In this document: positions 39 through 43,288 of the stretch, in pieces
How the letters are laid out: every line of letters starts with the position of its first letter
Position numbering within the stretch: position 1 is the first letter of the stretch
Origin: Torpedo marmorata
Taxonomy: Eukaryota
Length of the DNA stretch: 64,000 nt
Assembly: GCA_977017645.1 (NCBI GenBank)
Contig: CDRNVU010001290.1
Span: 248,001 to 312,000, forward strand
Reading direction: 5' to 3'
Translations under genes and position numbers: made by a program
Notes under the pieces: model-generated
Databases searched by the model: none
Told to the model about the DNA's origin: nothing
The model's input: the letters and a program-made list of their open reading frames with translations, nothing else

Positions 39-898
39 TCAATATAACGGCGATTCCAATCCTCTCCCATGAAAATTGTGGTCTCTCTAAATGCATCACT
101 CGCTACCTGGTTGCCATGGCGGTAACAGATCTGATGGTGGTTATCCTTGCTGTTATAATGCAGCAGATTAACTTTATTTATTTATTCGCTAATTTCTTGT
201 TCAAAACTCCGTTTTGTGCTGTGACGCACGTCCTGAGGCTCATAACATTGGACTGTTCCGTTTGGTTAACGGTTGCTTTCACATTTGATCGTTATGTCGC
301 CATCTGCTGTCAGAAGCTGCGGAAACGATACTGCACAGAGAGAACAGCGACCTTGGTGATGGTGACCGTGTTTGCAATGAGCGTTGCTCAGTCTGTTCCA
401 TTTTACTTCGTAGTGCATCCACGGCGCTGCGTCGTGACAGTTGAATACCTGACGTCACCTGCGTGGGCAGCGTACGAGTTATTTAAAACTATCATAACCC
501 CATTGTTACCAATCGGTTTAATTTTGCTGTTTGATGCATTAACCGTCAGACATATTGTAGCGGCAAACAGAGTCCGTCGGGCCCTCCGGTTCAGCAGTCA
601 GAATCGAAAAGATACAGAGGTAGAGAAACGGAGAAAATCGATGATTTTATTGTTTGCTCTCTCAGCTAATTTAATTATACTGTGGATGCCACAGGTGGCA
701 CACAATGTTAAATGGCAAAAGGAAAACTATTCATACACGGACAGATATTTCGGCACGCCGCCATACGTCCTGCAACAACTTGGGTTAATGTTAAGTATGC
801 TCAGTACCTCCACCAACACGTGCATCTATGTACTGACTCAAAGGAAATTCAGGGAGGAGCTGAAGAAAGTGGGAAAACATGTGTTCACATTAAATTGA
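39..898 (+). CDS. Orphan class A GPCR, GPR139/142-like paralog A, exon 2 (TM1 half to TM7 and C-tail); exon 1 lies upstream of the window
   Basis: Pyrimidine tract plus acceptor tttctttcAG ending at 38. The frame continues upstream of the listed Met: (V)NITAIPILSHENCGLSKCITRYLVAMAVTDL. Motifs AxxD (TM2), FDRYVAIC, LWMP, NTCIY and FREEL; seven hydrophobic segments; TGA at 896-898. Confidence 0.93.
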
Positions 899-1101
899 CT
901 TCTCTGCAAGTAACCAACACCTTTAACTTTGCATTAAGCTTTATAACAAATATTTTGAAGACATGTTGTTCACTGGAAATCGTTTTGTTTCCGGTCCATG
1001 CTGTTCTGTTAATTTGATTTGATAGGCAAAACGTAATTTACAAAGGTAGACCCGAAATTAATCATATACTAAATGACTATTCAAGAATACATGCCAACTT
1101 T

Positions 1102-1107
1102 AATAAA
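1102..1107 (+). terminator. Candidate polyadenylation signal of paralog A
   Basis: AATAAA about 200 nt after the stop codon; motif only. Confidence 0.35.
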
Positions 1108-1229
1108 TTCTGACAAAAATGTAACTAACATGAGATTGCGGCATAGGTGATTTACGTCTCATTAGTGTCGTTTCCTCTCGTCTGTCATTGATAAAACCCG
1201 CACCGGATCTCTATCAATTCCTGGACGCC

Positions 1230-1700
1230 TGCTCTTACCTCAGATCCGCACTTTCCTTCGCACTCTACACTTCCATCCCCTGAGGCCATTCTTGATGTAA
1301 CTGCAGAAAGTTGAAAACTTGGCCCTACAACTTCTCCTTCGCCTTCCTCCAACGAAACGAACATAACGTCTTGGTAATCCTTATGGTTACATTGACATCA
1401 TCCAAACCAATCCTGTGCATTCGGTGTTCTCCGTGTGCCATCCATGACGTTGGAGAGACAAAAGGTCGATAGGGGTCGATTGGGTGACCACTATGCCGAA
1501 CATTTATACCTGAGCTTCCTATCGCCAACCATTGCAACTGCCGGCCTTGCGAAATAAAGCCAATTCTGTCACTGACCTTATCTTTTGTCATGGTGAAGAC
1601 AAACGTATACTTGCGGAAAACACCTCATATACCTCCCGGAGAGCATTAAACCCAATGGCATGAATATTTCTTTACTTTACAATTGATAATAACCCCACAC
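1230..1700 (+). mobile_element. Degenerate Penelope-like element fragment (GIY-YIG region)
   Basis: Broken frames give LCIRCSPCAIHDVGETK..LGDHYAEH, similar to the GIY-YIG segment of the element at 28.2-29.7 kb. Confidence 0.65.
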
Positions 1701-2229
1701 CGATTTGTTTCCACTCTTCACTCCCCTTTGCCTAATCCTGTACGTAATATTTTCCATCGCACTTAATTTTCTCTCCTCCTCTTAATTCTTTATCTGTCCA
1801 CCTGTCGCCAACAGCTTCTACCTGTCAACGATCCCATATTCTTTCCCCATATATGTTTAACTTCACATTTTATATTATCATCATAAAGGAAGTCAACTTA
1901 AACTTTGATGAATCCGTTCTATCCATGGATACTTTCAGGCCCATTGAGTTTATCTCAGCAATTCCTTGTCTGCAACATATATCTGATAATCGAGACTATC
2001 GTTACGATTTTCCTACCTTCAACAAATGTAGAATTACAAACAAATTTCTCCTCATTATTCCGCGCCATTCGATTTTGGGTTGTGGGACGGACACGTTCCA
2101 AGCACAGTATAGAGTAGGGAAAACGAACCGGCGACAACGCTGTGCGTCTGAGTGGCAAGTCGCTGAACGGCTCTCCTGTATTCGACGTGATCCTTACGAA
2201 GACAGGTTAGCTGTTTAGAATGCGATTTA

Positions 2230-3320
2230 AACCAGCTCCTCCCCTTACAAGCCGACATGCCTTCCTGATGGCTGTAGTCACTCCAGTTGTGATACCACAT
2301 TAAAACAAGAAAATTAGTCTCCATGGTTATCGCCCATTGGTTCTGACATCGATCACCATGAATTCATTGGCAAAGCTGACTATGTCCCACGGTAACTCCA
2401 TCCTCGCACAAGGCCGCGATACAGAGGCATTCTCCACCCGTCGCAACGGATCGCAGGCAGACACCATTTACCTGACTCTGCACTCTGCTTTGGAACACCT
2501 GCATCATTTTCTTGACCGCAGATGTTTTATTCAAATGATAGTTCCAAACATGTTCGCCGCCGACCCCGATCGCTACATTTCAGTACCCACATTGGAACTG
2601 TATCCGGGGCTTCCTGACGTCCATAATTTAAGGTGAGAGCATTGGTGAAATCACCTGCTCCTCGGTAATGATTAATATCTGTAGCCTCCAAAGGCGCAGA
2701 CGTGGCCGCCAACAACACAGATTATATTGTCAATTATTGCTTTAACACCATCCCTCGGTTCGTTAAGGATATTACCATAATGGGCTAGATCTCAATATAC
2801 GGCGCCACGGAGTTCAGGAAGGAGATAACGACTGCTTGCATTATGTAAAATACCATGTTCTCCTTAAATCTCAGCAAAACTAAGTAGCTGGGCATTTATT
2901 CAAGGGGATCGGGGAGATGAACACATCGCAGCATTTATCAACGGCACTAAGGTGGAGTTGCTGCAGAGCTTAAGTCCATTAAGAAAATATTAGCACTTTA
3001 GCAACTTTACTTCTTTGGATGTCTAATGTAAGTGGAAACACCCCCCCCCCCCAATGTATTTTTAATCGAGTTTTACAGATGCACAAAACGAACTATCCTG
3101 CTCGGATGCATCAAATCTTGGTTCTGGAACTGTGGTCAAGATCACAATAAACAGCAATGAATGGCCATAAAGAAACTACTATCACTCCATCGCATCAATT
3201 CATACATCTCACTGACTCGGGAGAGCGGCTAACACAGAAAATGTCCCCTTCCGGACAGTCCCGCACTCTAGTACGCCCTTTTTCGGGTATAGGATACGTG
3301 CGGTTGAACAGACGAACCTA
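2230..3320 (+). mobile_element. Highly degenerate Rex1/Babar-type LINE RT fragment
   Basis: RRNGSQADTIYLTLHSALEHL matches RHNRSTADAISLALHSALDHL of the copy at 36.6 kb; downstream RT-like remnants. Confidence 0.65.
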
Positions 3321-4299
3321 CACCTACAGTTTGCTTACGTCACTCAAATAGTATCAAATAAATAAAGTATGATGCACTTTCACACTTTCAAGTGCGACGT
3401 TCCTGAAAACTTGCATGTTGTTTGTCACACAATCTCCGGCACTTTCCGAGTCTCTGTGACACTTCACCCTGAATCTTAATTTTATTTACCTTCTGTATTT
3501 ATGTAAGGGTTGCCGAGCACGTGAAATAAAGCTTTTCATTCTAGTGGTGCACGTGATAAAAAATAAATTCATCAGAAATTGAAACGAAGTACATGTCAGG
3601 GGCATGTCAACAAATGACCTGGAGTAATTAATTAAATCGTCAGAAGAGCGCCATCAAGGAACTCAGTGCCAGAGGAAAACACTGAATTTGCAAAGTCAGA
3701 GAAGATTACAATTGTGATTGCAATAGGCCTGGCCAGTTCATCTCGCACGGCAGTAGTTGCATCGGAGACAAACCTGTTTTGAAAAGTTGTAAAATGTAAT
3801 TAAATGTGGGTTCTTCGAAAATAATTGTACGTCGACATATCGATAAATAAAGATGCGATTGGACTTAACCTCAGTTTTGGAGTCTCTGCTCAGCATGTCA
3901 GTTGATACCAGACAGTGGTTACACTTGATATCTTCCGTTGTCGCAAACACACTGATGGAACGTACAAAGATCCACACAATGAATTCGGGGTATGGCCAGG
4001 ACCACATAGCCCAGGGAGCGCAAAACGCAATTAAATCACATTATCCACGTTTTCACTGGAATCTCAATTATCCAAAAATGCGGGTGAACATCCGCAGAAG
4101 TACAATTATCAGAGAGGGTCCTGGGTGATAGTAAACACGTCGTCAGTCCAGAGGCAGACAGCATAAATGTGCGGTTGAGGGTGTCATAGCCGTGGACGAT
4201 TTCTATGTGGGATTAAATCATGCATTTATAAAGCCCCCGTGGTCAGCTGCTCCAGAGGATAACGATGCATCGAATGGATATTGAAATGGCGGTGATTAT

Positions 4300-4900
4300 T
4301 CGCAATTGGTTTCTCTACATGAGTTGGATGGGACTGGTGGAGTTGCTAGTTGTTGGATTGACTGGATATCAGTGACCAGATGTCTTACGCAAGGATCGCT
4401 GTAAGGCGTGTAAGAAACATTTAATGCGCAGAGGGATCAGGGAATTCTGGTCATATCATTTAGAATAGCCACGCAGAATACACACCTGGTCTTGTTGCCT
4501 TCTTCCACGGGTCATGACGTGTGAAAGTAAGGAGGTCGTGATGCGGCTATATAAAACATTGGGTTAGGCCGCACTTCCAAACCTTTGTACACTTCGGGCC
4601 ATTCCTATACAGGGTGGGTGTGGAGTTTTTCGAGAAGGCGACAAAATATAGTTACCAGAATATTTCCTGGATTACAGATTCCGAGTTACAATTGGATTTT
4701 GTGCACACTCGTATACTCTGCGCTGCCGAAAACTGAAGGGCGACCTGATTGAAAGAATTACATCTTTGTAATTGGTAGGGCAGGCAGGCAGATTTTTCCT
4801 ACGTTACAAATATCACATCCCTGTTGGCACGCATGCAGCAGCCTATGGGGAAAGATTAAACAAGATGTATAGATCAGTCTTTATTTTAACTGGAGCCGTT
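4300..4900 (+). mobile_element. Degenerate CR1 LINE 3' ORF2 fragment
   Basis: gcagagggatcaggga, ctatataaaacattgggttaggccgcac and gggcgacctgattgaa resemble the CR1 QRDLG, LYKTLVRPHL and GDLIE segments. Confidence 0.55.
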
Positions 4901-4974
4901 TACGTATCAGGAAGAGGCTGCCAGGAGTATAGCGGGATACATGCAAATCTACAATGGTTCGGGTACAGTGAGGT

Positions 4975-5155
4975 AACAAAGAGTGCTGGAGAAACACAGC
5001 AGATCATTCAGCATTCACAGGAATCAAAGGACAATCGACATCTTGGTCTAAAGCCCTTCTTCAAGAGGGAGAAATGGCTCACGCCCAAGCCGTCGACTGC
5101 CTTTTACTCGCTATGGGTGCAGTGTGATCTGATGAGTTTCCCCAACTATTTATTT
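4975..5155. mobile_element. Inverted pair of Penelope-like 3' ends (fold-back element)
   Basis: tgctggagaaacacagcagatca ... gcccttcttcaag on the minus strand is mirrored by ggctcacgccc...gtcgac...tgatctgatgagtttcccca on plus; both arms resemble the PLE terminus at 28157-28300. Confidence 0.6.
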
Positions 5156-5674
5156 CTGCACTGCAGAAGTAGCGTTTGGGACCTTTCGGATGGACACGCG
5201 CATACTAAAGGAATAGAGGATCTGAAACATGTTACCGAAAGTTCATACCGTGTCGCCAGCTCTTTCTCATTTTTGCACAATTGTCGGACGGGCGACTGAT
5301 TTTTCGGCGGATTTGTGCGTCCGCAGAGCTCCCTGTGGCCGCAGCAACAGGGAGAATAAAAAGGATTCGGAGATTGAAACTCGACGAAATCCACGGTGTA
5401 TGTCTTCAGTGATACTAGAAGTTACATATTGACGAGGAAACACAAGTCTGTCAAGTATTTTCAAATATTTATTTTTCAGTCCGTCATCTATCCTCTTCTT
5501 ATTGCAGAACAGCCGACGGCGATGCTGAAACGCTTCGGTTCCTGAAACAATACCTGTATTTATGCATTAACTCTCAGTAAGCTCGGAGAAGAGCTGACAA
5601 TCGCGCTGAAATACTCGATGAAACTAATTATGAAATTAGTTAAATCGTAGAAAATAGAGCAACACACTGTCTTT

Positions 5675-6599
5675 TTTTATTTTAAATATTTTATTTAAAA
5701 TTTTAACTCACACGATAATACATGTTTATAAAATACAAAATTATCAAAATTCGTGTGATATATTTTCACCCTCCCCTCCCTCCTTTCCCCCTCCCTAACC
5801 CACCCACCCCCTCTACTCGACTAAAAAAGAAAGAAAAAAAAGAATAGAGTGTGGAGAATGTCATTCTAAAAGAAACAACTATAAATTAATTTTATTGTGG
5901 AACATAGGTTCGCCAGTCAGACCCTATATCAAGAGATCTTCAAATCCTTAAACCCACAGTTTTTATATATGGGCTCCATACCTTCAAAAAGGAATGATAT
6001 TTAAATTAAAGGTAATTATTTCAAGTGGTATACATGAACCAAGTTCTGCATGTCATCTTTCTAACCCTAAATCTACATGAGATTTCCAAGTAATAGCAAT
6101 ACATTTCTTTGAAACAGCTAAAGCAATCCGCAAAAATTCTATTTGGTACATATTTAATCTCATTTTACTACTAAGTCTTTTAATATCTCCAAACAAAAAT
6201 ATAATAAGATCCATTGGGAGTGTAATTCTCAACAATTTATCTGATACCTTTTTAACTTTCAACCAAAAATCATATATCTTTGCACAAAACCACGTAGAAT
6301 GTATAAAAGAACCTTCCTCTTTATTACATCTAAAACATAAACCGGGTAACGTCGGATTATTATTTTTTTGTTTCTTTGGAGTGAAATATAATTGATGCAA
6401 AAACTTATATTGCACTAACCTATATCTAACATTAATAATCTTCGTCATACATTGTTTACATATTTCTTTCCAATATTCCTCAACTATTGTTACATTCAGA
6501 TCTAATTCCCATTTTAATCTTGATATATGAATTCCTGGTTTTGGCATTTTTTTCTGTAACAATCTATACATTTGAGAAATAAATTTATTTATACCCCTC
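5675..6599 (-). mobile_element. 5'-truncated L1-clade LINE (ORF2 C-terminal Cys-rich domain, 3'UTR, A-rich tail)
   Basis: ORF 6053-6601 with YRLVQYKFLHQLY, CFRC...HSTWFC and KKCIAITWK; T-rich tail at left; target-site duplication ACACTGTCTTT at 5664-5674 and 6603-6613. Confidence 0.9.
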
Positions 6600-6789
6600 A
6601 AGACACTGTCTTTGAATGAACGTCAATGTTGTTAGCCTGCACTCTTCACATGACAAAATGTGAAAAAAATATTTTTTATGGTAGAGAAGTCCAAGACCAT
6701 TTCGTTTACTTCATCACTCACCGCCCCGGAGATATTTATGTCGTAAAACGAATTATTACCCTTCACTTTTAATTATTTATATTTTTATG

Positions 6790-7024
6790 ATGGACGTAAT
6801 GGGGCATTTCGGCCCACGTGCCAGTGCCGTCCAATTACACCCATTGACCGACACTTCCGGGACGCTTTTTAACGGTGGGGTGAAACCTGTGCTCCCGGAG
6901 GAAACCCACACAGACACGAGGAGAACATAGAAACTCCTTACAGAGAGCGCCGGATACGAAACTCGGTCCCGATCGCTGGCGCTGTAACAGCGTTGCTCCA
7001 ACCGCTACCCTAACTGTGCCGCCA
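6790..7024 (-). mobile_element. tRNA-derived V-SINE (HE1-like)
   Basis: Minus strand: tRNA-like head (ggcggcacagttagggtagcgg...gtttcgtatcc), V-domain GTTCTCCTCGTGTCTGTGTGGGTTTCCTCCGGG and a CR1-like tail gggccgaaatgccc. Confidence 0.85.
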
Positions 7025-8089
7025 AAGTTTGCCGCTTAATTTGACACTGATATTTCTGTCTAGTGTTACCAGTCCTCATTTTATGTGCGGAAACACATCA
7101 ATGAGTGACCGTGAGCGTTGGTGGAAATATTTTTGTTGTGCGAGAAATTAGCAGTGTTTGTGATGAGTACGATACAGGACTCAAACGAGACATTCAGAAA
7201 TATCGTACCTGGACAGCAGATGAGCTGTAAACCTGTGGAGGGCGGATTTTTGAGGATCCTTTATCCATGTCCATAGAAGAACGAGGTACTGACTGTGTGA
7301 TAAGTAATTGTGAAACTTGCGAAGGTCAGTGTGAATGTTTTAGAACATGTTTGTGAAAGTTTAGCATCATATGTCAGAAATATGCGTCTTAAAGTCACTT
7401 AATATAGTAGGAAGACAGCAACTTATAACTGAATGGAGCAAACGTGGAAAACACAGCATTTAACTTCGTCAGTGAATCTTCGTGCCAATGTTCGCAAGAA
7501 ATGGTTGACAATTGAAGATTTACGAGAAAACACTGAAGCCATGTATATGACGCGATAGAATTTAAAACGAGTAAAATATTTCTCTCAATTATTCCTCTAT
7601 TATTGAAAACCAATTGTTTTAATTTCCAAGGTGTTGTTCTTATTCAGTGAGCCCAGTAGAGATATGGACATCATTCTAAGCACCGTCCGTTACCAACATT
7701 TCTCAGAAAACATGTGGTTATAATTGGCGGAAGGTATTATTTATGTGGTAAATGTTTCTCTGCAGCTCCATCACATCAATAATTGAACAATCGAAATGCA
7801 ATTTAACAGAGAAGTCTGGATATAGACACAAGGAAAAAAGTAAATTCTACGATTGCATGATGTTCTTTTTGCAGTAAACAAGTTTTGCTTTGGGAGGAAC
7901 GTTTCCAAAATGAAGAGGTGTGGATCAACATTTCTTATGCTTTTGGAATACGCGTATTTCCAGGTCCCAATCGCATTTTAAAGTATGTTGTTTTATTTTC
8001 ATTTCCGAGAGTAGAATTCACGCGGGCGGTATGCTGATATTAGCGTGTATTACCATATGAATCACTTTCCTGTATTAAATTCAATGGAG

Positions 8090-9595: not shown

Positions 9596-9599
9596 AAGA

Positions 9600-12560
9600 T
9601 AGAACCATAGATCCAGCGGACATTACAGCAGAGAAACAGGATATTCAGCCCGTGTAGACTGTACAGAATTACCTTTCGTCGTCGTCCCACTTAGCTTCAG
9701 CCAGTCCATCGCCATCCACACCTCTACCATCCATGTACCTGTCCAAATTCTACATAACTATTAAAATTAAACCCGCAAGCTGGCAGCTCGTTCCACACTC
9801 CCACCACTCTCTTTGTGAAGAGCCTCCCCCTAATGTTCCCCCCAAATATAACCTTTCAATCTTAACCCGTGTCCTCTGGTTTGTATCTTACCTACCCTCA
9901 ATGGAAAAAACCTACCTACATTTACTGGGTATATACCATTCATAATTTTAAACACCTCTATCAAATCTCCCATGCTTCTTATACACTCCAGGGAATAAAT
10001 TCCTAACCTGTTTAATCTTCCCCTGAATCTCAGTTACTGAAATTCGGCCAACGTCCTCGTAAGCTTCGCTGTAAGGTTTCAAACATATAGATATCTCTCC
10101 TGTAGTTAGGTGACAATCATTTCACACAATCCAAAGTTTGCCTGAACAATGTCTTGTACAACCTTACCATATCATCCCAACATCCTTACCCAATAATTTG
10201 ATTTATGAAGGTCAATATTCCAAAAGCCTATCTCCCTCTGATGCCACTTTCAGGGAATTTTGTATCTGTATTCCAAGATCCCTCTGTTCTACCACAGTCC
10301 TGAGTGCCCTACCATTCACCGTGCATGTCATTTCTTCGTTTGTCCTTCCAAAATCCAACAGCTCACACTTGTCTGCATTAAATTCCATCAGCCAGTTCCA
10401 GCCCATTTTACAGCTTATCCAGATCCCTCTGCAAGTTTTGAAACCCTTCCTCAATCTCCCCTACGCCACGAACCTTTGCGTCATCAGCAAACCTGCTGAT
10501 CCAATTTACCACTTTAAAAACAACAATGGTCCCAGCAATGATCCTTGACTCTCACCATTAGTCACGGGAATCCTGTCTGAGAAGAAGTCATCCACCACAA
10601 ATCTCTGGCTTCTCCCGCACATCCTTTGTCGAATCCAGTGTACTGCCTCACCACGGATACCGAGTTCCTGAATCTTTTTGACTAACCTCCCATGTGGTAC
10701 CTTGTCAAAGTCGTATGAAATTCCATGTAGACAACATCCACAGCCTTTTCTTCATCAATCTTCCTCGTAACTTCCTGAAAAACTCTATCAAATTGTTAAA
10801 CACGACCTACCATGCATAAAGCCATGATGACTATCCTTAATCAGTCCCTGACTATCCAAATAATGGCATTTCAAAACTTCTTCAACATCCTCCAATACTT
10901 TACCGATAATTGACGTCAGGCTGAACGGCCGAGCATTTCCAGGGTTCCTTGTGAAGATTTTTTTTAAACAACGAACAACATGAGCTACCCTGCAATCATC
11001 CGGCACCAAACCGTGGATAAGGACATTTCAAATATTTATGTCAGAGCCCCTACAATTTCCACAATAGCCTCCCTCAAGCGAATATATTTTCCGACAGTAG
11101 GGATTTATCCACCCTTATCTGTTTAACACAGCAAGAATTTCTTCCACTTTAATCTTTATTGATTCCATGGCCTCACTCCTTGATTTCCAAACTTCACTTG
11201 TCTCTGTGCCAGTGTCCTCATTAAATATTGATGCAAAAACCCATTTGAGATCCCCCCATATCCTTTGGCCCCTTACACCGCCGACCACTCTGATCTTCAA
11301 ATGGATCAATTCTGCCCCTTACTTTCCATTTGCTCTGAATATACATTAAGAAACCCTTAGGATATACCTTCGCATTGTCTGCCAAATCAACCTCATGTCT
11401 TCATTTCGCCTTCCTGATTTATTTTTTGAGTTCTTTCTTGCATGTTGTATACTCCTCGAGCACATAGGTTGCTCCGCGTTGCGTATACCTGCGATACATC
11501 TCCCTTTTCTTCCGAGTCAGAGCCGAAATATCCCTCAAATAGTAAGTTACCCTATGCCTGTGAACGTTTCGTTTAATCCTGACAGGAACATACAACCTCT
11601 GTACTCTCAAAGTTTCACCTTTGAAGGTCTCCCACTTACCTCGCACATCTTTGCCAGAAAACTACGTATCGCAATCCACGCATTCTAGATCCTTTCTCAT
11701 TCCATCAAATTTTTTATTTCTCCGATATATAATCTCAACTCGAGCACCAGACCTATCCTTCTCCATAATTAATTTGGAACTAATGGCATTATTCTCACTG
11801 GACTCGAACCTGCACATATTTGTGTCAGATGTGTTCTCTCGTTGCCTAATTGGAAATAAAGAATTGCACTACCTCCAGTTGCTTCCTCTGTATATGGATT
11901 TAGAAAACTTTCCTGAACACATTTGACAAACTCCAAGCCATCCTGCCCCTTTACAGTATGGAAGTCTTGCTCAATATGTGGAAAGTTAAAATATCCTACT
12001 GGCACAAACTTATGTTTCCTGAAGCTGTCTGCTCTCTCTCTATAGATTTGCTCCTCCAATTCTCCTTCACTATAGCGGAGTCTATAATACTGCCCCATAA
12101 GTGTCGTCATACCTTCAAGTTTCTGATCTCCACCCACATAGCTTCCACAGACGAGCCCTCTGGTCTGCCTTGTCTGAGCACAGCAGTGATATTTTCCCTG
12201 CTGTACAATGCCACTCCTCCCCGTTTCACCCAACCCTCCCTGTTCTATCGCGTCTGAAAAATCGGAAGCCAAAAACGTTGTACTTCCAGTCAAGACCCTC
12301 CTGCAACCAAGTTTCACTCATGGCCACAATGTCATAATTCCACGTGCGAATCCAGGCTCTCAGCTCGTCGGCCATTCCTACAATAGGTCCTGAATTGTAA
12401 TAGATGCAACTGAGAATATTTCTGCCACGTACAACTCTTTGACGTCTGACGTAACGTGAAGTTTGCACATCATATTTTCCTATCTGCTCTGGCACACTCG
12501 GTCCCATCCACTGCCAATCTAGTCTAACCCCCAACCCTCCCGGAGCAGCACTAGAAAAAC
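9600..12560 (-). mobile_element. Degenerate CR1 LINE (endonuclease, RT and 3' tail, with internal deletions)
   Basis: Minus-strand ORF fragments YDIVAMSETWL, GYFNFPHI, VPDDCRVAHVV, HHGFMHGRSCLT, WLMEFNADKCE and EQRDLG; 3' tail near 9600. Confidence 0.9.
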
Positions 12561-12990: not shown

Positions 12991-12999
12991 CAGGGGACT

Positions 13000-15237: not shown

Positions 15238-15244
15238 TATAAAA
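15238..15244 (+). promoter_or_regulatory. TATA box of paralog B
   Basis: TATAAAA ends 51 nt upstream of the exon-1 ATG, which has a good Kozak context (gaacATGg). Confidence 0.6.
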
Positions 15245-15294: not shown

Positions 15295-15364
15295 ATGGGA
15301 TATCCAGCAATTTACCAGATAGTCAGAATTTATTATCCCGGACTGGCAGCGGTCGGCATTCCGG
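15295..15364 (+). CDS. GPCR paralog B, coding exon 1 (MGYPAIYQIVRIYYPGLAAVGIP + G)
   Basis: ATG at 15295, 23 codons plus 1 nt, donor G|GTAAGG at 15365. Phase 1 joins exon 2 in frame (G+TT = Val). YYPxLAxxGIP is the family TM1 start. Confidence 0.88.
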
Positions 15365-15769
15365 GTAAGGTGCGAGATGACGGCGATAAGTGTGGCTCAG
15401 TATTTACTTTGTGCTTGCTGCAACCATGAATTTTGTCTGTTGCATTTAGTTGAGTACAAATTAAATTACCACAAAATGCCAAGTGGAAACCTAGATATTA
15501 TATGTAAAAACGGTCGAGAAGTGAATATTCACATTTGTAGTTTATGCAATGTAAATTAATATTTTAATCGCGCATTCAGATATTTTGGCTAAACCATATT
15601 CATCGTCTTTATTCCGGCACGTGATCAGTGCTCAATGAAGATGCAAATATATCTGCCAACGCTCTTGCAATATTTAACGGCACAGAAGTTAACTCTCTCC
15701 GTTACAGCTGGCCACTACGCAGAGATTTATCTACTGCCATCCGTTTTAAGCGTTCCAGAACCACTGCTT

Positions 15770-17244: not shown

Positions 17245-18113
17245 TTACCTTGACGACCATTGTGATCCTGTCACGTGGAAATTGTGGTCTCTCCAAATGC
17301 ATCACTCGCTACCTAGTGGCCATGGCGGCAGCTGATCTCACGGTGGTTATAGTTGCGATTATCATGCAGCAGATTAATTATATTTATTTATTCGCGAAGT
17401 TCATGTTAGAAACTCCATTCTGTGCTGTGACACTTGTCCTGCAAAATGTAACTTCGCACTGTTCCGTTTGGTTCATGGTTGCTTTCACTTTCGATCGCTA
17501 CGTCGCCATCTGCTGTGAGAAGCTGCGGCAACAATACTGCACCGAGAGAACGGCGACTGTGGTGCTCATAACAGTGACTGCAGTGAGCGGTGCTCTGTCT
17601 GTTCCATTTTATATGGCAGTGGATCCACGGCGCTGCGTCGTCACGGATCAGTACATGACCTCACCCGTGTGGGCATCATACCAGCTATTTGTCCATATCA
17701 TGACCCCGTTATTACCAATCGGTTTAATTGTACTGTTTAATGCAATAACCATCAGGTATATTATAGCGGCAAATAGAGTTAGACGGGACCTCCGGTGCAG
17801 CGATGAGAAGGATCCAGAGGTGAAGAAACGGAGAAAGTCAATGATTTTGTTGTGCGCACTTTCTGCCAATTTCATTTTACTCTGGATGCCCCAGGTGGTA
17901 CATTCTACTCAATGGCAAAAGCAAAATTATTTCTATGCTGACAGATATTTCAGCACCCCGATATATATCCTGCAACAGTGTGGATTTATGTTAAGGATGC
18001 TCAGTACCTGCACGAACTCGTGTATCTATGCACTGACACAACGGAAATTCAGGGAGGAGCTGACTAATGGGGTGAAATATGTGTTGACATTTAATAGTCA
18101 GCTCCGTAAATGA
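17245..18113 (+). CDS. GPCR paralog B, exon 2 (spliced product 312 aa)
   Basis: Acceptor tttctttcAG ending at 17244; uninterrupted 7TM ORF with AAAD, FDRYVAIC, LWMP, NSCIY and FREEL; close paralog of A. Confidence 0.94.
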
Positions 18114-18288: not shown

Positions 18289-18297
18289 ATCACCTGC

Positions 18298-28156: not shown

Positions 28157-29660
28157 AAGTAAATCACGAAAATCTGCAGACACCGTGGTTGAAGTAAAAA
28201 ACACAAATGCTGGAGAACTCAGCAGGTCAAACAGCATATTTTATGTAGCAAAGGTAGAAATACATAACCGACGTTTCGGGCGTGAGCCCTTCATCAACGT
28301 ATGAGAAAATGCCGGCAGGCGTCCGAACATAAGAGTGAGGGGGGAAGGGGGTGGCAAAGGCAGAAGATGTCAGGTGGAGAAAGGAGGGAGGGGACAGCAG
28401 CAAAGAGGGGGAGGAGGGATGGCTGGGTGGGTGGAAAAAAATGGAAGGACAGGTACGGGGGAGGGGACGGGAAAGGCAATCAGGTTTAATGGAAAGCAAA
28501 AAAGTTAATGTTATGCCATCTGGCTGGATTTTGCCCAGACGGAAAATAAGATGTTGTTCCTCCAATTTGCGGGTAGTCGGGGTGGGATAGTACATAAGGC
28601 CATGGACAGACATGTGAGTGTGGGAGTGTGAGTCGAAATTAAAATGGTTGGCTTCTGGGAGGCCGTTGTTGTTGCGGACGGAGAGGAGGTGCTCAGTGAA
28701 GCGATCTCCCAATCTACGACCGGTCTCTCCGATGTATAGAAAGCCACAAAGGGAGCACCGCATGAGTACATAAGTTATCTGGATGTACAAGTGAAGTCCA
28801 GTTTCACTTGAAAGGCCTGTTTGGGGCCCAGGACCGTGGTGAGGGGGAGGTGTGGGCGTAGGTGTTGCACCTCCTGCGGGCACAGGGGAAGGTACCGGGG
28901 GTGGAATGGGTGGGTGGGATGAGTGCACGAGGGAATCTCGGAGGGAGCGGTCCCTGCGGAAGGCCGAGAAGGGAGAATAAGGATAAACGTGTCTGGTCGT
29001 GGGATCCTGCAGAAAGTGCCGGACATTCCGCCGCATAATTTGTTGGATGCGGAGGCTTGTGGGGTGGTAGGTGAGGATGAGGGGGTATCTATGTTTGTTG
29101 CGTCTGGGGGCAGAGGGGTCCAGGGCAGATGAGCGGGAAATGGAGGAGATGCGGGTGAGGGCTGAGTTGATGGTGGTGGAGGGGAAGCCACGTTTGTGTA
29201 TAAAGGCAGACATTTCAGAAGATCTGGACTGGAATACCTCATCTTGGGAACAGATGCGGCGTAGACGGAGAGATTGAGAGAAGGGGATGGAATCCTTGCC
29301 GGGGACAGGGTGTGAGGAAGTGTAGTCCAGATAGTTGTGGGGGTTTGAGGTTTTGTCATAAATGTTGGTGGAAAGCTTGTCTCCCGAGATGGAGACAGAG
29401 AGATACAGGAAATGGAGGGTGTCATCGGAGATGGACCAGGTGAGTTCGAGATCGGGGTGGAAGTTGGACTCGAAGTGGATGAAGTTGACAAGCTCATCGC
29501 GGGTACATGAGGCAGCACCGATGTAGTCGTCCATGTACCGGAGGAAGATATGAGGGGTGTTACCTGTGTAGGCTTGCAGCATGGATTGCTCCACAAAGCC
29601 TACAAACAGGCAGGCGCAGCTGGGACCCATGTGGGTATTCATGGCAACTACTTTGATTTG
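28157..29660 (-). mobile_element. 5'-truncated Penelope-like retroelement (RT C-half, GIY-YIG endonuclease, 3' end)
   Basis: MGPSCACLFVG, LRYMDDYIG, YLDYTSSHP, SIPFSQSLRLRRICS and CSLCGFLYIGETGRRLGDRFTEH; terminal hammerhead-like motif. Confidence 0.93.
28263..28303 (-). ncRNA. Minimal type-I hammerhead-ribozyme-like motif
   Basis: Minus strand: catacg-TTGATGA-a-GGGC-tcac-GCCC-GAAAC-GTC-ggttatg. Core C3 is U and stem I is imperfect. Confidence 0.55.
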
Positions 29661-30092
29661 GCTAATTGAAAGACTAATTAAAGCAGTGTTACGAAGCAAC
29701 GACGAATGATAAATTTGGAAAAATATTTTCTCTTGGAAAACCACAGATGAAATGTGGAGGATGACTCGAGACTATTCATGCTATGTTATGGACAGGTTTG
29801 TGCACTAAGAGAAGGAAACGAAAGCACGATAAGAGAACGGTGGTTGACAAACCAGGTGAGGGAGCGAGTGAAGAGGCGGAAGGAAGCATACATAAGATTT
29901 AGGAAGCAAATAAGAGGAAGGGCTCATAAGAAATATACGGCAGCCATCAAGGAACCTAAGAGTGGAATTTGATAAGGTCCCCCATTGTAGACTCGTTCAG
30001 AATCATGGCTGAATTCAGAATTGGTTTGATTGCGAAAACTGATGGTGGTATTCGATGGAATGTATTGTGTCTGGCGGTCAGTGACGAGTGGT

Positions 30093-35271: not shown

Positions 35272-35476
35272 GATTTGTGGACATCCCAATCACGAGGGGT
35301 GACAAATTGGTCCGAATTGCTACCCGCTCCCATCGAAACTTTTCCAATCGAAAGTGGTTGAACGCCCCAATCACAGGTGATGGCAGCAGGTTGGGGATTT
35401 CCATAAATTTCGAAAAATATTCTCAAATTGAAAGTAGCGGCAGTTGAACTTGAGAAGGAGAGTGAAAGATCGAAAT

Positions 35477-36760
35477 GAATCAGAATCAGAATCAGAATTT
35501 ATTTTCAGAAACAAGGTCATGAAATTCTGTGTTTTGCGGCAGCATCATATTGCAATTAACATTCATATTAACCATCTTTCGAAGTTACTATAAAAATTAT
35601 AAATAATAGTGCACGAAAAGTAAGGCAGTGTCTTTGGTTCATTGATAATTCAGGAATCTGATGGCAGCGGGGAAGAAGCTGTCCTTGTGCCGTTGAGCGC
35701 TCGTCTTCAGGCTCCTGTATCTTATTCCCGATGGAAGCAGAGTGAAAAGGGCATGTCCTGGGTGGTGGGGGTCTTTGAGGATAGAGGCTGCTTTTTTAAG
35801 ACACCGCCGCATGTAGATGTCCTCGATGTAGTGGAGTTTGGTGCCTGTGATATCACAGGCCGGGTTAACAACCCTCTGGAGTTTACTCTTGTCCTGAGAG
35901 TTGGCGCCTCCATACCAGGCAGTGATGCAACCAGCCAGAATGCTCTCCACGGTACGCCTGTAGACGTTTACGAGAGTCTTCGGTGACATACCGAATCACG
36001 GCAGACACCTCACAAAGTATAATCGCTGACGAGCCTTCTTTGTGATTGCATCAACGTGGATGCTCCAGGACAGATCATCGGAGATGTTGACACCCAGGAA
36101 TTTCAACTTCTTCACCCTCTCCACTACTGAGCCCTCGATGAGAACTGGGTCATGTTCCCTTGACTTCCTCCTGTAGTCCACAATCATCTCCTTGGTTCTG
36201 ATGACGTTGAGCTCAAGGTTGTTGTCGTTACACCATTCAACAAGCTGATCTATCTCCCTCCTGTACGCTTCCATATTGCCTTTTGTGATTCTGCCTACAA
36301 CTGTGGTGTCATCGGCAAACTTGGAGATGGCATTGGAATTGTGCCTGGCCACACAGTCATGGGTGTATAACGAGTAGAGCAGTGGTCTAAGCACGCATCC
36401 TTGGGGTGCGTCTGTGTTGATAATCAGTGAGGAGGAGACGTTGTTTCCAATACGTACTGACTGTGGTCTTCCGATGAGAAAGTAAAGGATCCAGTTGCAG
36501 AGTGGGGTACAGAGGCCTAGAATTTGTAGCTTCTTGAACAGCACTGAGGGAATAATGGTATTGAAGGCCGAGCTGTAGTCGATTAAGAGCAGCCGTATAT
36601 ATGAATTGCTGTTTTAGAGGTGATCCAGAGCTGAGTGGAGAGCCAGCGATATTGCATCTGCTGTGGAGCGATTGTGACGATAGGCGAATTGCAGTGGGAC
36701 CAGACCTTTGCTTAGGTACGTGTTAATTCTGGCCATGACCAGCCTCTGAAAGCCTCTCAA
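35477..36760 (-). mobile_element. Relatively well-preserved Rex1/Babar-type LINE 3' half
   Basis: [40 protein letters not shown]...[19 protein letters not shown] and DSFFPAAIRFLN; 3' microsatellite (ATTCTG)n at 35477-35500. Confidence 0.92.
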
Positions 36761-37875
36761 ATGAGACTGACAAAATCCAGCAGTCACTGAAGGATAGGGT
36801 TTGAATTGTTTGCAACCACTGAAATTCTCAAACAAGTCTGACAACAAACACAGCGATGAGAATAACTTTTTATCAATCAGATGATCGTGAATGCATGTTC
36901 AAAAGAATGAAAGGTTACAATGGAAGCGGTAACGTGGCCGTTCAGTCTGCATTCAGATGAGCTGTAACTTGATTGCATGGCAAGACAAATTGATCGCCCG
37001 TGTTTCCTGCTCCCGTTGCTCGTAATCCGCTTTATTATATGTTTGAAGTTGATTCATCGTGCTTTTATATCTTGACGCCAGATATTCATCAAGCGCACAA
37101 TAATCAATAATGTAACATTAGCCTTGGCTAACGCTACAACGACCTGAGACTCCCCAAAGGCCGCACGCTGGACTATCCCCATCTCCGTATCTTGACATCT
37201 CCCTCTTTATACATACACAAACGCACAGTTATTTACGCCACGTTGACAAATATCCTGTCCTCAGCTAGAACAATGTATGTTTCTAAGAAAAAGCATATGG
37301 AAGAATGTAGATTAAGGGACGCAGTTATAATGTAAACTATTACTCAGAATTTGTGCACAGGCCGATAAGGTGCGAAGCACCTACGGGCTAAATGACCCAA
37401 ATTATTGTATTTCTCATACTCATTTTATGCTCATCTGAAGAGCAAGTCCACTTTGACAAAGGATACCTTTGTCTGTTTCTCTGTGCATCATTCTAATATG
37501 TGATGCTTCTCTGGAGCTTTATTATGAAGACAGTGGCATGTCTACCAATTATCATTGAGCTTCGGATAGGAGATATCCAATCTCCGACTGATATTATGAA
37601 TGTTTCTCGGCGGAGGGGGCTTTGTTTCGGCGGGATATATTACATCATTCTCTGGAGTGAGATTTCTGCGCTAAGAATAAATTGCCGGTTTGAAAGGGGT
37701 TTAATGGTCATGTTTGTTCAGTGACTGCAATTAATATCTGTCAACTAGTGACTATAATTGTGAAACCAAGCGGCTGTGCCCTTCCAATAATAACAGCTTC
37801 CTTAAGCGCGTCCGTCCATATTGTCAGTGGAAAAGCATCAGCTGCGGTCTCTGCATCTTCACCGGCTCCTCGGAC

Positions 37876-37975
37876 ATGGAGATAATGAAGAGGGGCCACC
37901 TGTTCCCTTTATATTTTTTCATGCAGGAACTGGAAAAGATATATTTCCCCGTGCTAGCGACGGTTGCCCTCCCGC
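37876..37975 (+). CDS. GPCR paralog C, coding exon 1 (MEIMKRGHLFPLYFFMQELEKIYFPVLATVALP + C)
   Basis: gacATGg Kozak; 33 codons plus 1 nt; donor C|GTAAGT at 37976; IYFPVLATVALP aligns with IYYPGLAAVGIP of B; phase 1 joins exon 2 (C+TC = Leu, then NLMTI). Confidence 0.85.
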
Positions 37976-38531
37976 GTAAGTATCCGATCCAACTTAACTC
38001 CGTTTATCATGTTTAAATGTTATTTTGGCCTTCTGTTTGTTTCCAGTCGCACCTCTCACCGACCTCAAACTCCAGGTCATTTGCCGTGTATGTGAGTTGC
38101 TTTGCCTCTTTTCCCCGAATAATTGACATTACCCCCTTTACCCATCTGAGGATCTGACGGGGTTAAACTCGCTGAAGTCACTTAAACACAGCGGGGATCA
38201 TTCTCTTCAATATTAAGGCAACCACGCAGAATAAATGGTGGTGGTGGGGGGGGGTTACTTGGCCGTATCCAGATGCGTTCCGCACTCGGTGGGAACAGGT
38301 ACATCACAAATGCACCACTGAATGTCTGGTTTCTCTCTCCCACAATCCAGCCTCAGCTCTCCAGATCACGCGCGCACCTCCTGTTTCACTTCAATGATTT
38401 TCTGTCTGGTTCGCGAGATAGCATAATATCTGTTCTCTTTAAAAGTGGGATCATGTGAAATTATTTCGCATTGCAAATGTTCCGCTCATATCACTGTTAG
38501 AACTATCTGAATACCGTCGAATCGCAACAGG

Positions 38532-39670
38532 CGGGAGATACTGCAAGCCGGAGCAAAGCAAATTGTTGGCAAAAATCAGTGGGTCAGGGAGCTTCTGTGA
38601 GGCTACAGCGATGTCCAATGTTTCGGGTCGAGACCCTACATCGGGACTGAGGATGCAGATGGGGAAAATAGCCGCAATTTCAATGTAAGCGGGATGGGTG
38701 AGACAGCGGATGGCAAGTGATGTGTGGAATCATATAAGGGAACGATGGAAAGAAGTAGACGGATACGGTGTGGGAGTTACGAGGAGAAATGGAGACATAG
38801 TGTGGGAGATGACAAGTGTAACAAAACAAGATGAGGGATTATGGGCGTGTTACCAGGTGAGTTGGCAGTACAGGAGAAACAAGTGAGCAAAACGCCAGGG
38901 AGTTCCTTTACCGGGTGCTGTAATGAGTCAGTGAGGCAGGGGGGAGCGTGATGAGTTCTGGTTGTCAGAGGGGAGGGATGGAGAACTGGAACAAAACGAG
39001 GGAGAATGCGAGTGGACTCGTGGTAATTGGAAGTGAACACATGGGGCGTGGGTGACATAAAATTGGAAAATTCAATATTGAAACGAAACAAATGAAAAAT
39101 AACGTCATCCCATCTGTCAACCGATTTGTACTCTCTCTCTTTTCACCTTTCATTCACTTTTGTTGCCAGTTTTCTTCATCCCCCAATCAGACATCGTCAG
39201 CCAATCTTAACATCCCGACTTACCTCTGAGTTCCCCATGTCCTTCAGCACCTGGTTGTATCTCCTATCGCCCATTAACTGGCTACCGGTTTTAATTCATC
39301 TCGGTCCAGCTTACATCTACCCTTACCCAACATTCCACCGAACATCCCTCTTTTATCTATTCCTGTCCACAAATTCCTATTTCTCATCCATCCTGAACTC
39401 ACTGCTCCTTCAAGGTCACAGGACGTTCATCTACCAGTCATCCAGCAGCCTCTGCTTCAAAACCCGCCAACCTTGCTCCACCTGCGGATAACACCTCCGC
39501 CAATCTGGTGGATTCGCAGTTCTATTGGTCCATCAGCTTCACTTTTGAATGCGGACTATCTTACTCCAACACCTTCGGTCCTGATGCAGCGTCTCAACCT
39601 GGCACGTAGTATTTACTTGCTGGTCACAAATTCTACTTGACACGCTTCATTCATGCGGCAGTTTGCTTCT
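38532..39670. mobile_element. Two divergent Penelope-like 3' ends in the intron of paralog C
   Basis: Minus copy 38532-39090 (NIEFSNF end of ORF, purine-rich UTR on plus, GGGTCTCGACCC-GAAAC); plus copy about 39130-39670 ending CTGATGCAGCGTCTCAACC. Confidence 0.6.
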
Positions 39671-40384
39671 GCCGATTATGTTTTAAATGTTCAGTCACTG
39701 CCAACCGAATTTAACAGTGCTTCAAACTTACGTTTCCTGTTCAGCCATTCAGACATCTTCAATACCTGTTTGCGGCTGAGAGAATGAAGAGGGAGTTTTC
39801 ACAGGAATATGGGACAATATTTGCGATGCCTTCCTCTGAAACCAATCAAATTATGTTTGAACAACTGAAATCAAACCCCGGAAATTAATTGGGAGTTCTT
39901 GGGCCACATTATTATTTGTACGGGAGCAGCGATATTCCGTAAAGGTTCCTTTCTGTGCTAATAAATATTATTAAGATCAACTAATTATAATTTGCAACGA
40001 CATAAACATTTTAGCATGATGTGTATATTTATTTATTATTTCGGTATGTTGGTATGGATAGCTCGGTCAGATTATTTCATCATTCATTGAGCTGATAGAG
40101 GTGACATCACGTGAAGACATTCCCACCGTCCTAATTATAATTGAATTCAAGGACTTGTCACTCTCTGTGAAAGAAAACAGCGATATATTTCTCAGAAATT
40201 GTTCTCCTTGGTTTGAAGAACAATCTGAAATCCGAGGCGCCACCAGGGGCCCGGAGAGACACCACATCCGAGGGTTCGATTCGCAACATTGTTTGGCGAC
40301 TGAAATAAATGTGGTGCGGACTATAAACATGATGTCTAAAGAACGTAAGCAAGCAAGTCAATCCGCAGACCCATGGGGCAGGCG

Positions 40385-40862
40385 TGAAACCAAAGAGTGC
40401 TGAAGTAACTCAGCACAACACGCAGCATCTACGGAAATTAAAGGCAGATGCCGCTTCGGGTCCGAGCCGTTTTCCAGAGGTGCCGAATATCACACAGATG
40501 CCTGAATAAAAATGTCATTGACGGGAATGGGTGAAGTAGGGAGAGGGATGCATGGTAACAGGTGATAGTTGATGTGGATAGGGGTGCGACTATGGAAGTG
40601 TGTGCCTGAGAAGTGATTGGGTGAGACGTCGGACGGACAAGAATGATAGTTCTGAGGGGAGAGGGAAAGGAAGGGTCTGAGTTAAAGNNNNNNNNNNNNN
40701 NNNNNNNNNNNNNNNNNNNNNNNNNNNNNNNNNNNNNNNNNNNNNNNNNNNNNNNNNNNNNNNNNNNNNNNNNNNNNNNNNNNNNNNNNNNNNNNNNNNN
40801 NNNNNNNNNNNNNNNNNNNNNNNNNNNNNNNNNNNNNNAGGAACAGAGGGAGAGAGGGAGAG

Positions 40863-40913
<51 letters not shown>

Positions 40914-40920
40914 GAGAGAA
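40385..40920 (-). mobile_element. Penelope-like 3' end with (GA)n tract; contains N gap 40688-40838
   Basis: gtgctgaagtaactcagca...gcagcatcta...ttcgggtccgagcc matches the PLE terminus; (GA)n at 40839-40920. Confidence 0.55.
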
Positions 40921-41749
40921 AAGGAAGCTAACATTGATGACTGGTTGTTTGAAGCAATGGCAGGACTGATCATAGCTCCAGTGACGTGTATGGTTATTAC
41001 TGGTGTCCAGCAACAGATATATGGACAAAGGGTGATGTGGAAGAAATTTCGTCGCGACAACGAAGCCGGGGAAATTAGTGTGTCATTGTAAAATCATCAA
41101 GGGAAGCAATGGATCATTCACACTGATGCATGGTATCTGGCTAATGTAGCCAATAGAGTCAGGTGACAGTTTATTGAGATACTTGACCGACGGCGACATC
41201 TGAGCAATTCAGATCAGGAAAATGGACCGTTTATTGCCACACTGGCCGTGAAACAAGCACTCGAACACATACAAAGTACACACACCAGAAGTTGAGCACT
41301 AAACGCACACGCGCATACTCCCCTCAGGGCTCAGTGTGTGTGGGTAATGAGGACAAGAATGAACTGAGCCTGGTTACAACTCTCACTCCCGCTGACCGAA
41401 GATCCGTGGATTATGAAAAAGTAGTGTCACACCCTTCACTCTCCACCCGCATTAGCCTCCGATGAGAAATACAGACAATATTTCAACAAACTGGTGACGC
41501 ACGCTGTAGCGGTGATAAATGTCCGCAACCCAAAATAAACCGATGTTTCCCTTCTCCCTCACACCTCTCACAGGGCCAGGGCTTCACATGATCACAGCTG
41601 AAGTGACGCTCCGATTCATGTCATGGGAACTATATTTCCAGCAATTATTTTTTCTCCAGACCGAGCTATTCTGCATTAGAGGAATCGTAAAGCTTTTATG
41701 AGACACACTTTTTTTCTCCTGTTTAACATTAGTCCACTTCGTGTCCTAA

Positions 41750-42360
41750 TGAATGAGCAAGGAGGTAATGTTGCAACTGTACAAGGTACTGGTGAGACCG
41801 CACCTGGAGTATTGTGTGCAGTTCTCGTCTCCATATTTGAGGAAGGATATACTGGCCTTGGAGGCAGTCCAGAGGAGGTTTACTTGGTTGATCCCTGAGA
41901 TGAAGGGGTTGAAAGATTAAATCGTCTGGGATTATACTCGCTCGAGTTCAGAAGAATGAGAGGAGATCGTTTAGAAACAAATAGAAATATGAAGGGGCTG
42001 GATAGGATAGAGGTAGAAAGGTTTTTTTCACTGGCGGGTGAGACCAAAACTAGGGGACGCAGCCTCAAAATGCGGGGGAGTAGATTTAGGACCGAGATGA
42101 GGAAAAACAGTTTTTCCCAAAGAGTGGTGAATTTGTGGAATTATCTACCCAGGGAAAAGGTTGACGCTGCTTCATTGGACATATTTAAGGTTCAGTTGGA
42201 GAGATGCTGACATAAAAATGTAATTAGGGGATATGGGGAAAGGGCAGGTAGGTGGAGTTAGGTCATTGATCAGATCAGCCATGATCTTATTGAATGGCGG
42301 AGCAGACTCGATGGGCCGGTTGGCCTGCTCCTGTTCCTAATTTCTTATGTTCTTATGTTC
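41750..42360 (+). mobile_element. 5'-truncated CR1 ending just before the exon-2 acceptor of paralog C
   Basis: [34 protein letters not shown]; 3' hairpin region and tail TTCTTATGTTCTTATGTTC. Confidence 0.92.
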
Positions 42361-42386
42361 TTCTTCTTTATTATTCATCCTCACAG

Positions 42387-43288
42387 TCAACCTGATGACG
42401 ATTGTGATCCTGCTCCGGGGAAAGTGCGGTCTCTCCAGAAGTATCACCATCTATCTGGTCGCCATGGCTGCGGCGGATTCTCTCGTCATTATCCTTGACC
42501 TGATATTGAGGCAAATCCCGATTTTTTACATCGATCAGTTTCGTTTTCTCCTCCGTCTCCCTATTTGTAATATACACGCCGTGTTGCTTTATTCTGTCAC
42601 CGACTGTTCTGTCTGGTTCACCGTCATGTTCACCTTTGATCGATTTGCTGCCATCTGTTGCCCAAAACTAAAACCTAAATATTGCACTGACAGAACGGCA
42701 GCTGCCGTTCTGGGAACTGTGTCTGTTATGAGCAGCTTGAAGAACATCACGTGGTACTTTTCATTGAGTAAACACTACGCGTATATCAACTTTCCCTGGT
42801 TTTGTGCAGTGCTGTTCAGTGTACTGGAATCGCCGATATGGAGCACAGTCGAACTTCTTCATTATATCCTTAGCCCTGGACTGCCGTTCGTCCTGATCTT
42901 GCTGTTTAATGCTTCAACCGTCAGGCACATTGTAACAGCGAGCGGAGTCCGCAAGAGAATCCGTGGTCACAGCAGCGGAGAGAGTTCCAGAGATCCGGAG
43001 GCGGAGAGCCGAAGGAAATCCATAATTTTATTGTTTGTTATATCGGGGAATTTCATTCTGCTGTGGGCGGTGTTCCTTGTGTACACCATATGGTTCCGGG
43101 TTTGGCTGTTCGGTGTACAGACATTTTATATACCTATTTTTGTCCAAGAAGTAGGATTTATGTTGCAACTCCTGAGCTGCTGCACCAACACGGGGATTTA
43201 CGCCGTCACCCAGACTAAGTTCAGGGAGCAGGTGAAGGGTCTGTTGAAATACCCCATGACACTCATTGCGAAATGCATTAAAGTTTGA
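42387..43288 (+). CDS. GPCR paralog C, exon 2 (spliced product 333 aa)
   Basis: Acceptor cctcacAG ending at 42386; 7TM ORF with AAAD, FDRFAAIC, PWFC (ECL2), LWAV, NTGIY and FREQV; more divergent than the A/B pair. Confidence 0.94.

Follow-up and report, generated by a model that had tools for sequence, protein, structure and literature searches.

An old tandem cluster of receptor genes in Torpedo marmorata and the large, possibly chemosensory elasmobranch receptor family to which it belongs

Receptor genes at the locus

We analysed a stretch of 64,000 nucleotides from Torpedo marmorata (contig CDRNVU010001290.1, positions 248,001 to 312,000), hereafter the window, which carries three G-protein-coupled receptor (GPCR) genes, designated A, B and C. 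Six-frame translation of this 64-kb window yielded three stop-free reading frames for proteins with seven transmembrane helices (TM1 to TM7), all on the plus strand. These genes, a candidate promoter element and a decayed fourth copy are located as follows (ICL and ECL, intracellular and extracellular loops).

39..898, plus strand: gene A exon 2, open reading frame from the end of TM1 to the stop, with a TTTCAG acceptor ending at 38 and a 7tm_1 match
5320..5645, plus strand: decayed fourth copy, confined to the 3' third of exon 2 (from ICL3 to helix 8) and broken by frameshifts and a stop, found by tblastn
15238..15244, plus strand: TATA-like box, a candidate promoter element read from the sequence, 57 bp 5' of the gene B ATG
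15295..15364, plus strand: gene B exon 1, 70 nt, encoding a short N-terminus and the start of TM1, with a phase-1 donor at 15365
17245..18113, plus strand: gene B exon 2, spliced product 312 aa, of the short-ECL2 subfamily that also includes A
37876..37975, plus strand: gene C exon 1, 100 nt counted from the first in-frame ATG, with a phase-1 donor at 37976
42387..43288, plus strand: gene C exon 2, spliced product 333 aa, of a second subfamily, without P6.50 and P7.50

A, B and C are class A (rhodopsin-like) GPCR genes, with two coding exons shown for B and C. Their products match the Pfam family 7tm_1 with 79.8, 77.8 and 66.9 bits, respectively, against a cut-off of 30.5, and no other Pfam family at E ≤ 0.01. 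The class A hallmarks are present, namely DRY in A and B, DRF in C, and in all three D2.50, W6.48, Y7.53 and the cysteines joining TM3 and ECL2. P7.50 is missing in all three, in agreement with an earlier note on this DNA, which had reported no proline in the NPxxY box. Across the thinned alignment of the family to which the genes belong (103 sequences), R3.50 is conserved in 100%, W6.48 in 96% and Y7.53 in 98%, and the cysteines of TM3 (C3.25) and ECL2 are kept in 100 (97%) and 98 sequences, respectively. P6.50, which C lacks, occurs in just 31 of the 103 members, an unusual activation switch for class A, and ECL2 of A and B is 8 residues shorter than the family consensus. An AlphaFold2 model of C (pLDDT 89.7) has seven long helices and matches class A structures with Z 24–25, resembling peptide-type receptors with no single one favoured. 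As a test of family the fold search was uninformative, since GPR139 ranked 9th in Foldseek among near-equal E-values; it was not among the best 50 VIA-align rows for the C model.

The AG acceptor of exon 2 stands at one common TM1 codon in A (39), B (17245) and C (42387), which confirms the shared acceptor position described before. Exon 1 of B and of C ends at the same codon with a phase-1 GTAAG donor, and splicing in frame leaves a single terminal stop in each; the two first exons, previously considered the same, thus agree in donor codon and phase but differ in length (70 versus 100 nt). With exon 2 spacings of 17,206 bp (A to B) and 25,142 bp (B to C), the description of three intact, co-oriented genes about 17–25 kb apart is correct as to orientation, spacing and frames, but the intactness of A covers exon 2 only, its exon 1 lying upstream beyond the window edge. 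A and B are 70% identical, and C is 44% identical to A and 45% to B, in line with the assignment of A and B as close paralogues and of C to a distinct subfamily. The motif SxWxTVxxTxDR ascribed to the group is found in A and C but not in B, where M replaces T. The decayed copy at 5320–5645, which was overlooked in the earlier note, matched a hidden Markov model (HMM) of the family with iE 2.5e-10 and was recovered by nhmmer with E 1.4e-15. HMM and nucleotide scans of the window for more copies or exon-1 remnants gave just the three genes and this one relic.

The expanded family and its low-copy sister

The genes in the window make up a single tandem cluster, small and old, from a large class A GPCR family of elasmobranchs. 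Queried with C and B, the searches reached 1265 and 1038 clusters at 90% identity, respectively, at E ≤ 0.001, of which the best 120 of each were examined; the tails may hold other GPCRs. Named elasmobranch proteins made up all 120 of the best matches of C and 114 of the 120 of B, the other 6 being unnamed, and the family rows among the matches listed are nearly all automatically labelled 'probable GPR139'. A hand count of the two lists gave at least 67 clusters at 90% identity for Heterodontus, at least 58 for Heptranchias and at least 24 for Narcine, numbers that are lower bounds and of which some may represent alternative gene models or haplotigs. Among the matches listed, the Narcine rows are spread over 11 scaffolds, with 9 rows on one of them, and the closest relatives of B are paralogues from Narcine bancroftii (73–76%). 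At 50% clustering, 101 representatives (fragments included) score E < 1e-30. The whole known chemoreceptor set of the catshark amounts to 65 genes (PMC6368271). Gene duplication has enlarged the family, in which copies are born and lost; the high copy numbers per genome, the clades confined to single species and the pseudogene in the window support the lineage-expanded, birth-and-death family that had been proposed.

Phylogenetic trees, built with unnamed outgroups and without the named GPR139 and GPR142, recovered the expanded set as one clade, both with IQ-TREE (support 99/99, 24 of 43 rows, stem 0.89) and with FastTree (support 97, 97 of 128 rows). The clade is fast-evolving and contains species-specific subclades, such as one of 8 Narcine rows with support 100. 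In the IQ-TREE phylogeny, C groups with a protein of the skate Rhinoraja (98/97) and A branches outside B plus Narcine (100/94). The A/B subfamily and the C subfamily each hold both sharks and rays, and therefore the split between them predates the shark–ray split.

A separate receptor, also automatically named 'probable GPR139', is present at about one gene per species, and its tree broadly follows that of the species. The best 120 of its 131 matches come from teleosts, sturgeon, bowfin, reedfish, coelacanth, amphibians, turtles and two sharks, and include no mammal, bird or squamate names. These low-copy proteins (P0231 from Latimeria, P0251 and P0388–P0504, including P0462 from Scyliorhinus) form their own clade (100/99, IQ-TREE). 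Like the expanded clade, they have the N-terminal motif Y/FYPxLAxxGIP, cysteines in TM3, ICL2 and ECL2, QxxFR after TM7 and no P7.50, and the ICL1 motif Cys-x-Leu-Ser is found in 86 of 103 members of the expanded family and 29 of 37 low-copy sequences. Unlike the expanded clade, the low-copy receptor has an almost invariant pocket with R6.51 and has stayed at its low copy number. Profile–profile comparison of the two families gave E 3e-52 over 310 columns at about 30% identity. In the IQ-TREE phylogeny, the expanded clade, the low-copy clade and a third, unnamed clade are united at 88/95, a node that is not starred, and the sister order among them is unsettled. As judged from the sequences, the nearest named relative of the expanded clade is this low-copy vertebrate orphan receptor, and the expanded family appears to have arisen from an ancient, GPR139-related orphan receptor of vertebrates. 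Rinne et al. (2019) described the orphans GPR210A and GPR210B near GPR139 and GPR142 in coelacanth, gar and fishes, shark data being absent from the portion of that paper available to us (PMC6504862); the low-copy receptor is possibly GPR210A or GPR210B. Proteins P0257, P0261, P0265, P0267 and P0269 form an unnamed clade (100/99) with the ICL1 cysteine and the N-terminal motif of the family, and P0259, P0264 and P0270 form another clade of unnamed relatives (100/99).

GPR139 is the best solved-structure relative of both family profiles (92.7 versus 57.3 bits and 77.7 versus 60.8 bits), in a profile test that covers solved structures only and from which GPR142 may be missing. Scores of single sequences against GPR139 were 36.9 and 43.5 bits, with a thin margin for B (43.5 versus 41.0 bits for PAFR). 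GPR139 resembles B and C in having two exons and lacking P7.50. It differs from A, B and C in overall sequence, with about 21% identity in the structural alignment, and in its pocket anchors D2.61, E3.29, E3.32, R6.51 and N7.39 (PMC7318219, PMC12775434), which are not kept in the three genes. Orthologues of GPR139 itself are 70% alike from human to zebrafish and have two exons (PMC7318219). Strict orthology or paralogy to GPR139 was rejected on the basis of the identity of about 21% and the lost anchors. The earlier placement of the genes with GPR139, GPR142 and FMRFamide-receptor-like proteins is therefore upheld in that GPR139 is the best solved relative, and amended in that they are not paralogues of GPR139 or GPR142 but belong to a separate clade beside a low-copy orphan.

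Ligand pocket, selection and surrounding DNA

For the analysis of the ligand pocket, helices were numbered on the family alignment, and the pocket was defined by a generic class A list of 33 positions. Near full length were 302 of the 326 family sequences and 105 of the 119 sister sequences, which were thinned to 103 (70% identity) and 37 (80% identity), respectively. Mean entropy in the 103 family sequences was 2.40 bits in the pocket, 2.08 bits at other outer TM positions and 1.13 bits in the inner half, compared to 0.60, 1.06 and 0.86 bits, respectively, in the 37 low-copy orthologues, a contrast between family and sister with a permutation p of 0.0005 within outer positions. At matched divergence, the pocket difference in the expanded family was 1.6–2.1 times that in the sister in each of the 4 bins. 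Pocket change exceeded that at other outer positions in 43 of 89 pairs at 30–40% divergence, where the two are equal, and in 91 of 129 pairs at 40–50%, where the pocket changes more.

The triad of an acid at 2.61, an acid at 3.29 and R6.51 is present in 103 of 105 sister sequences and in 1 of 302 sequences of the expanded family; R6.51 by itself is found in all 105 and in 4 of 302, respectively. At positions 3.32, 6.51 and 7.39, A has R, Q and L, B has Q, Q and F, and C has L, F and F. With the ligand anchors of GPR139 lost, its sensing of Trp and Phe is not transferable to the expanded family. The aligned positions indicate that the ancestral anchors were replaced and that the pocket was retuned subfamily by subfamily. 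C and the Rhinoraja protein have the same residue at 32 of 33 pocket positions at 69% overall identity (Fisher p 0.004, one of 8 pairs tested, uncorrected), which suggests long-term conservation of a specific ligand. Between A and B, 13 of the 33 positions differ, and members of their subfamily differ from a Narcine paralogue more in the pocket than elsewhere in the TM helices (p 0.03 and 0.05, uncorrected). Depending on the threshold, 50–105 pocket types can be distinguished among the 302 sequences. Pockets appear to have been set per subfamily and then partly held, with the A/B group still diversifying. The characterization of these receptors as pocket-variable is thus valid family-wide, where the pocket is the most variable TM class, but the variation lies mainly between subfamilies, close pairs are no more variable in the pocket than at other outer positions, and dN/dS is below 1.

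Selection on A, B and C is purifying. Between A and B, dS is 0.48 and dN/dS 0.36, with 0.31 for the intracellular side; between A and C, dS is above 2 and dN/dS 0.24, with reading frames and splice sites intact. Pairwise comparison of the three genes gave no dN/dS above 1, and the idea of a hypervariable pocket under positive selection is unsupported, given these values and the comparisons of close pairs. The introns and flanks of A, B and C share short repeat matches only, and the exons of A and B are 70% alike. A recent segmental or transposon-borne duplication was rejected on these grounds. The cluster is old and not the product of a recent burst, because A and B have a dS of 0.48 and no homologous flanks or introns beyond short repeats.

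Within-window repeats cover at least 31% of the window, and 9 of 30 scanned open reading frames match reverse transcriptase (RT), endonuclease or esterase families. The surroundings, which had been called saturated with transposable elements, are indeed repeat-rich, but they also contain an immunoglobulin (Ig) V-set-like exon at about 60004–60348 (plus strand). This exon is apparently intact, encoding the tryptophan and the two cysteines between a phase-1 acceptor and a phase-1 donor; it has no Pfam match, and look-alike scores of 0.93–0.96 to V-set clusters such as CD200R-like. A tandem array at 51775–54566 consists of 34 copies of an 82-bp unit (98% match) and is probably a satellite derived from a long interspersed nuclear element (LINE), because a portion of the dispersed repeat near 9766–9898 matches its unit. 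In a second array, at 57278–58006 (11 copies of a 63-bp unit, 95% match), long frames are open on both strands, which likely represent no gene. A 514-codon open frame at 28230–29771 (minus strand) has no Pfam match and is presumably a Penelope-type retroelement with an RT and a GIY-YIG end. Inverted self-matches at 44638–45832 (64%) and 56053–56428 (70%) are repeat copies in opposite orientation. Scans of the window for tRNAs and with Rfam gave 0 matches.

Possible functions and significance

The expanded family is clustered, evolves by birth and death, and combines compact genes and a short N-terminus with a variable pocket and a conserved G-protein face, features that are typical of receptor repertoires. 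We consider it very probable that the family is a functional repertoire for many ligands. The copies keep a common intracellular face, and therefore most likely share one G-protein pathway. We propose that such a repertoire would serve the detection of many external, water-borne ligands, perhaps peptides or amino-acid derivatives, that its members would be sparsely expressed, either by microvillous neurons of the olfactory organ or by chemosensory cells scattered over skin, gill and mouth, and that they may signal via Go/Gq, phospholipase C and a TRP channel. Granted a functional many-ligand repertoire, external chemosensation is evenly balanced against all other roles; taken as a whole, an external chemosensory repertoire is a plausible reading of the sequences whose probability falls somewhat below even. 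It is our first choice because the anatomy of the family is typical of chemoreceptor repertoires, because the conserved sister continues to fill the ancestral role, and because olfaction in sharks relies on microvillous neurons of the Go/TRPC2 type, odorant receptors (ORs) being hardly expressed. In the catshark, all olfactory neurons are Go- and TRPC2-positive, and 0 of 8 OR genes are expressed (PMC10116579). The boldest form of this proposal is doubtful: that the family would be a seventh vertebrate chemoreceptor family, specific to sharks and rays and co-opted from a GPR139-adjacent orphan, which equals or exceeds all their known smell and taste receptors, replaces the missing ORs in microvillous neurons and explains a keen nose with fewer than 10 OR genes.

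Several observations weigh against a chemosensory repertoire. Inside the family, the pocket differs from other outer positions with p 0.037, for sequences that are not phylogenetically independent, and in close pairs it is less variable than the other outer TM positions, exceeding them in 23 of 94 and in 30 of 119 pairs. The A–B pocket has a dN/dS of 0.56 (CI 0.29–0.95) and no region exceeds 1, in pairwise counts on three genes. More pocket change is in any case expected among paralogues than among orthologues, whatever the tissue. Robust olfactory expression has already been found for V2R/OlfC genes (PMC10116579), and GPR139 itself is a brain receptor (PMC7318219). The top 50 olfactory and brain genes in the main text of the catshark atlas include no GPCR, which is a weak argument since V2Rs are absent too (PMC11979771). 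Finally, the Ig V-set-like exon lies 17 kb downstream in the same window.

The OR and TAAR repertoires resemble the family in their clusters, compact coding regions, pseudogenes, species-specific clades, conserved inner face and variable pocket. ORs and TAARs number 5–8 in the catshark (PMC6368271). The family has no family-level homology with the OR, TAAR, V1R, V2R, T1R or T2R receptors, 7tm_1 being the sole match at E ≤ 0.01, and none of these names occurs among the 240 matches listed; its origin is separate. Several family members carry precomputed Pfam matches to the nematode families Srw or Srx, and the look-alike clusters include FMRFamide-receptor-like and Srw-bearing sets. Srw receptors are chemoreceptors derived from peptide receptors. 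The Aplysia receptors AcCRa–c likewise occur in clusters, are specific to their lineage and are active in chemosensory organs, where they are expressed (PMC2700072). The Aplysia and nematode expansions are independent of that in sharks and rays, and the available part of the Aplysia paper mentions neither FMRFamide nor srw (PMC2700072). On the protostome side, the receptor group expanded as neuropeptide receptors (PMC8557429).

An unlikely alternative is immune or barrier surveillance, in which the receptors might act on granulocytes, mast-like cells or somatosensory endings and detect microbial, parasite or damage peptides. The MRGPR and formyl-peptide receptor expansions of mammals are analogues of such a system. 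The same genomic anatomy of clusters, compact genes and variable pockets would be expected, the window also contains the Ig V-set-like exon, whose two ends are in phase 1, and the excess of pocket over other TM difference between A/B and the Narcine paralogue could reflect such a role. Furthermore, MAS1 relatives are absent in cartilaginous fishes according to the available parts of the whale shark genome paper, which may have left the niche open (PMC8455134). However, dN/dS does not exceed 1, the C pocket is nearly unchanged relative to the skate protein, unlike in an arms race, and a single neighbouring exon says little on tissue; one nurse shark immune single-cell supplement, of just 4,750 characters, contained no match.

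Less probable still is endogenous signalling, in which the family would be an enlarged group of receptors for neuropeptides or metabolites, acting in brain, gut or gonad and retaining the ancestral GPR139/RFamide–Wamide role. This is favoured by the position of GPR139 as best profile match among solved structures, by the binding of peptides with aromatic ends in the GPR139/RFamide–Wamide group (PMC8557429), by the predicted resemblance of the C model to peptide receptors and by the retention of the TM3 and ECL2 cysteines. Yet a conserved sister with the ancestral pocket is present in sharks, so that this role is filled, and the many pocket types of the expanded family would demand many unknown endogenous ligands. 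A largely neutral expansion, in which LINE-rich DNA promoted unequal crossing-over, the copies are mostly redundant or barely expressed and haplotigs and alternative models inflate the family, is improbable: although the surroundings are repeat-rich, many matches have odd lengths and lie on small scaffolds, a pseudogene is present and a dN/dS of 0.36 is on the relaxed side among receptors, frames and splice sites survive at the divergences of A–B and A–C given above, exons are 70% alike between introns and flanks without homology except repeats, 103 of 302 full-length sequences were left after thinning to 70% identity and 101 representatives at 50% clustering score strongly, so that this explanation is already weakened for A, B and C.

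The searched literature, from which subscription journals are mostly absent, contained no description of the shark–ray expansion. Sharks are not mentioned in the accessible portion of a GPR139 review (PMC12208981), nor GPCRs in that of the stingray genome paper (PMC10787021), nor GPR139 in the main text of the catshark atlas (PMC11979771), and 12 of the 24 supplementary files of the whale shark genome paper held no match (PMC8455134). The latter paper described GPCRs as relatively scarce in cartilaginous fishes (PMC8455134), and surveys of shark chemoreception, in which the queries came from the six known families, arrived at about 65 genes (PMC6368271). The sequences are already in public annotation by the hundreds, and together they represent a large GPCR repertoire that expanded independently from an orphan receptor. 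At least 58–67 distinct receptors per species (Heptranchias and Heterodontus, respectively) are hidden under one automatic label and, whatever the tissue in which they act, constitute a large receptor system that awaits characterisation in the most ancient lineage of jawed vertebrates. With the catshark tissue RNA-seq that already exists, it becomes directly testable how a small receptor set supports the good sense of smell of sharks. The low-copy receptor is a good target for deorphanisation in its own right and, as a conserved non-mammalian sister with a GPR139-like pocket, may aid the search for the natural ligand of GPR139.

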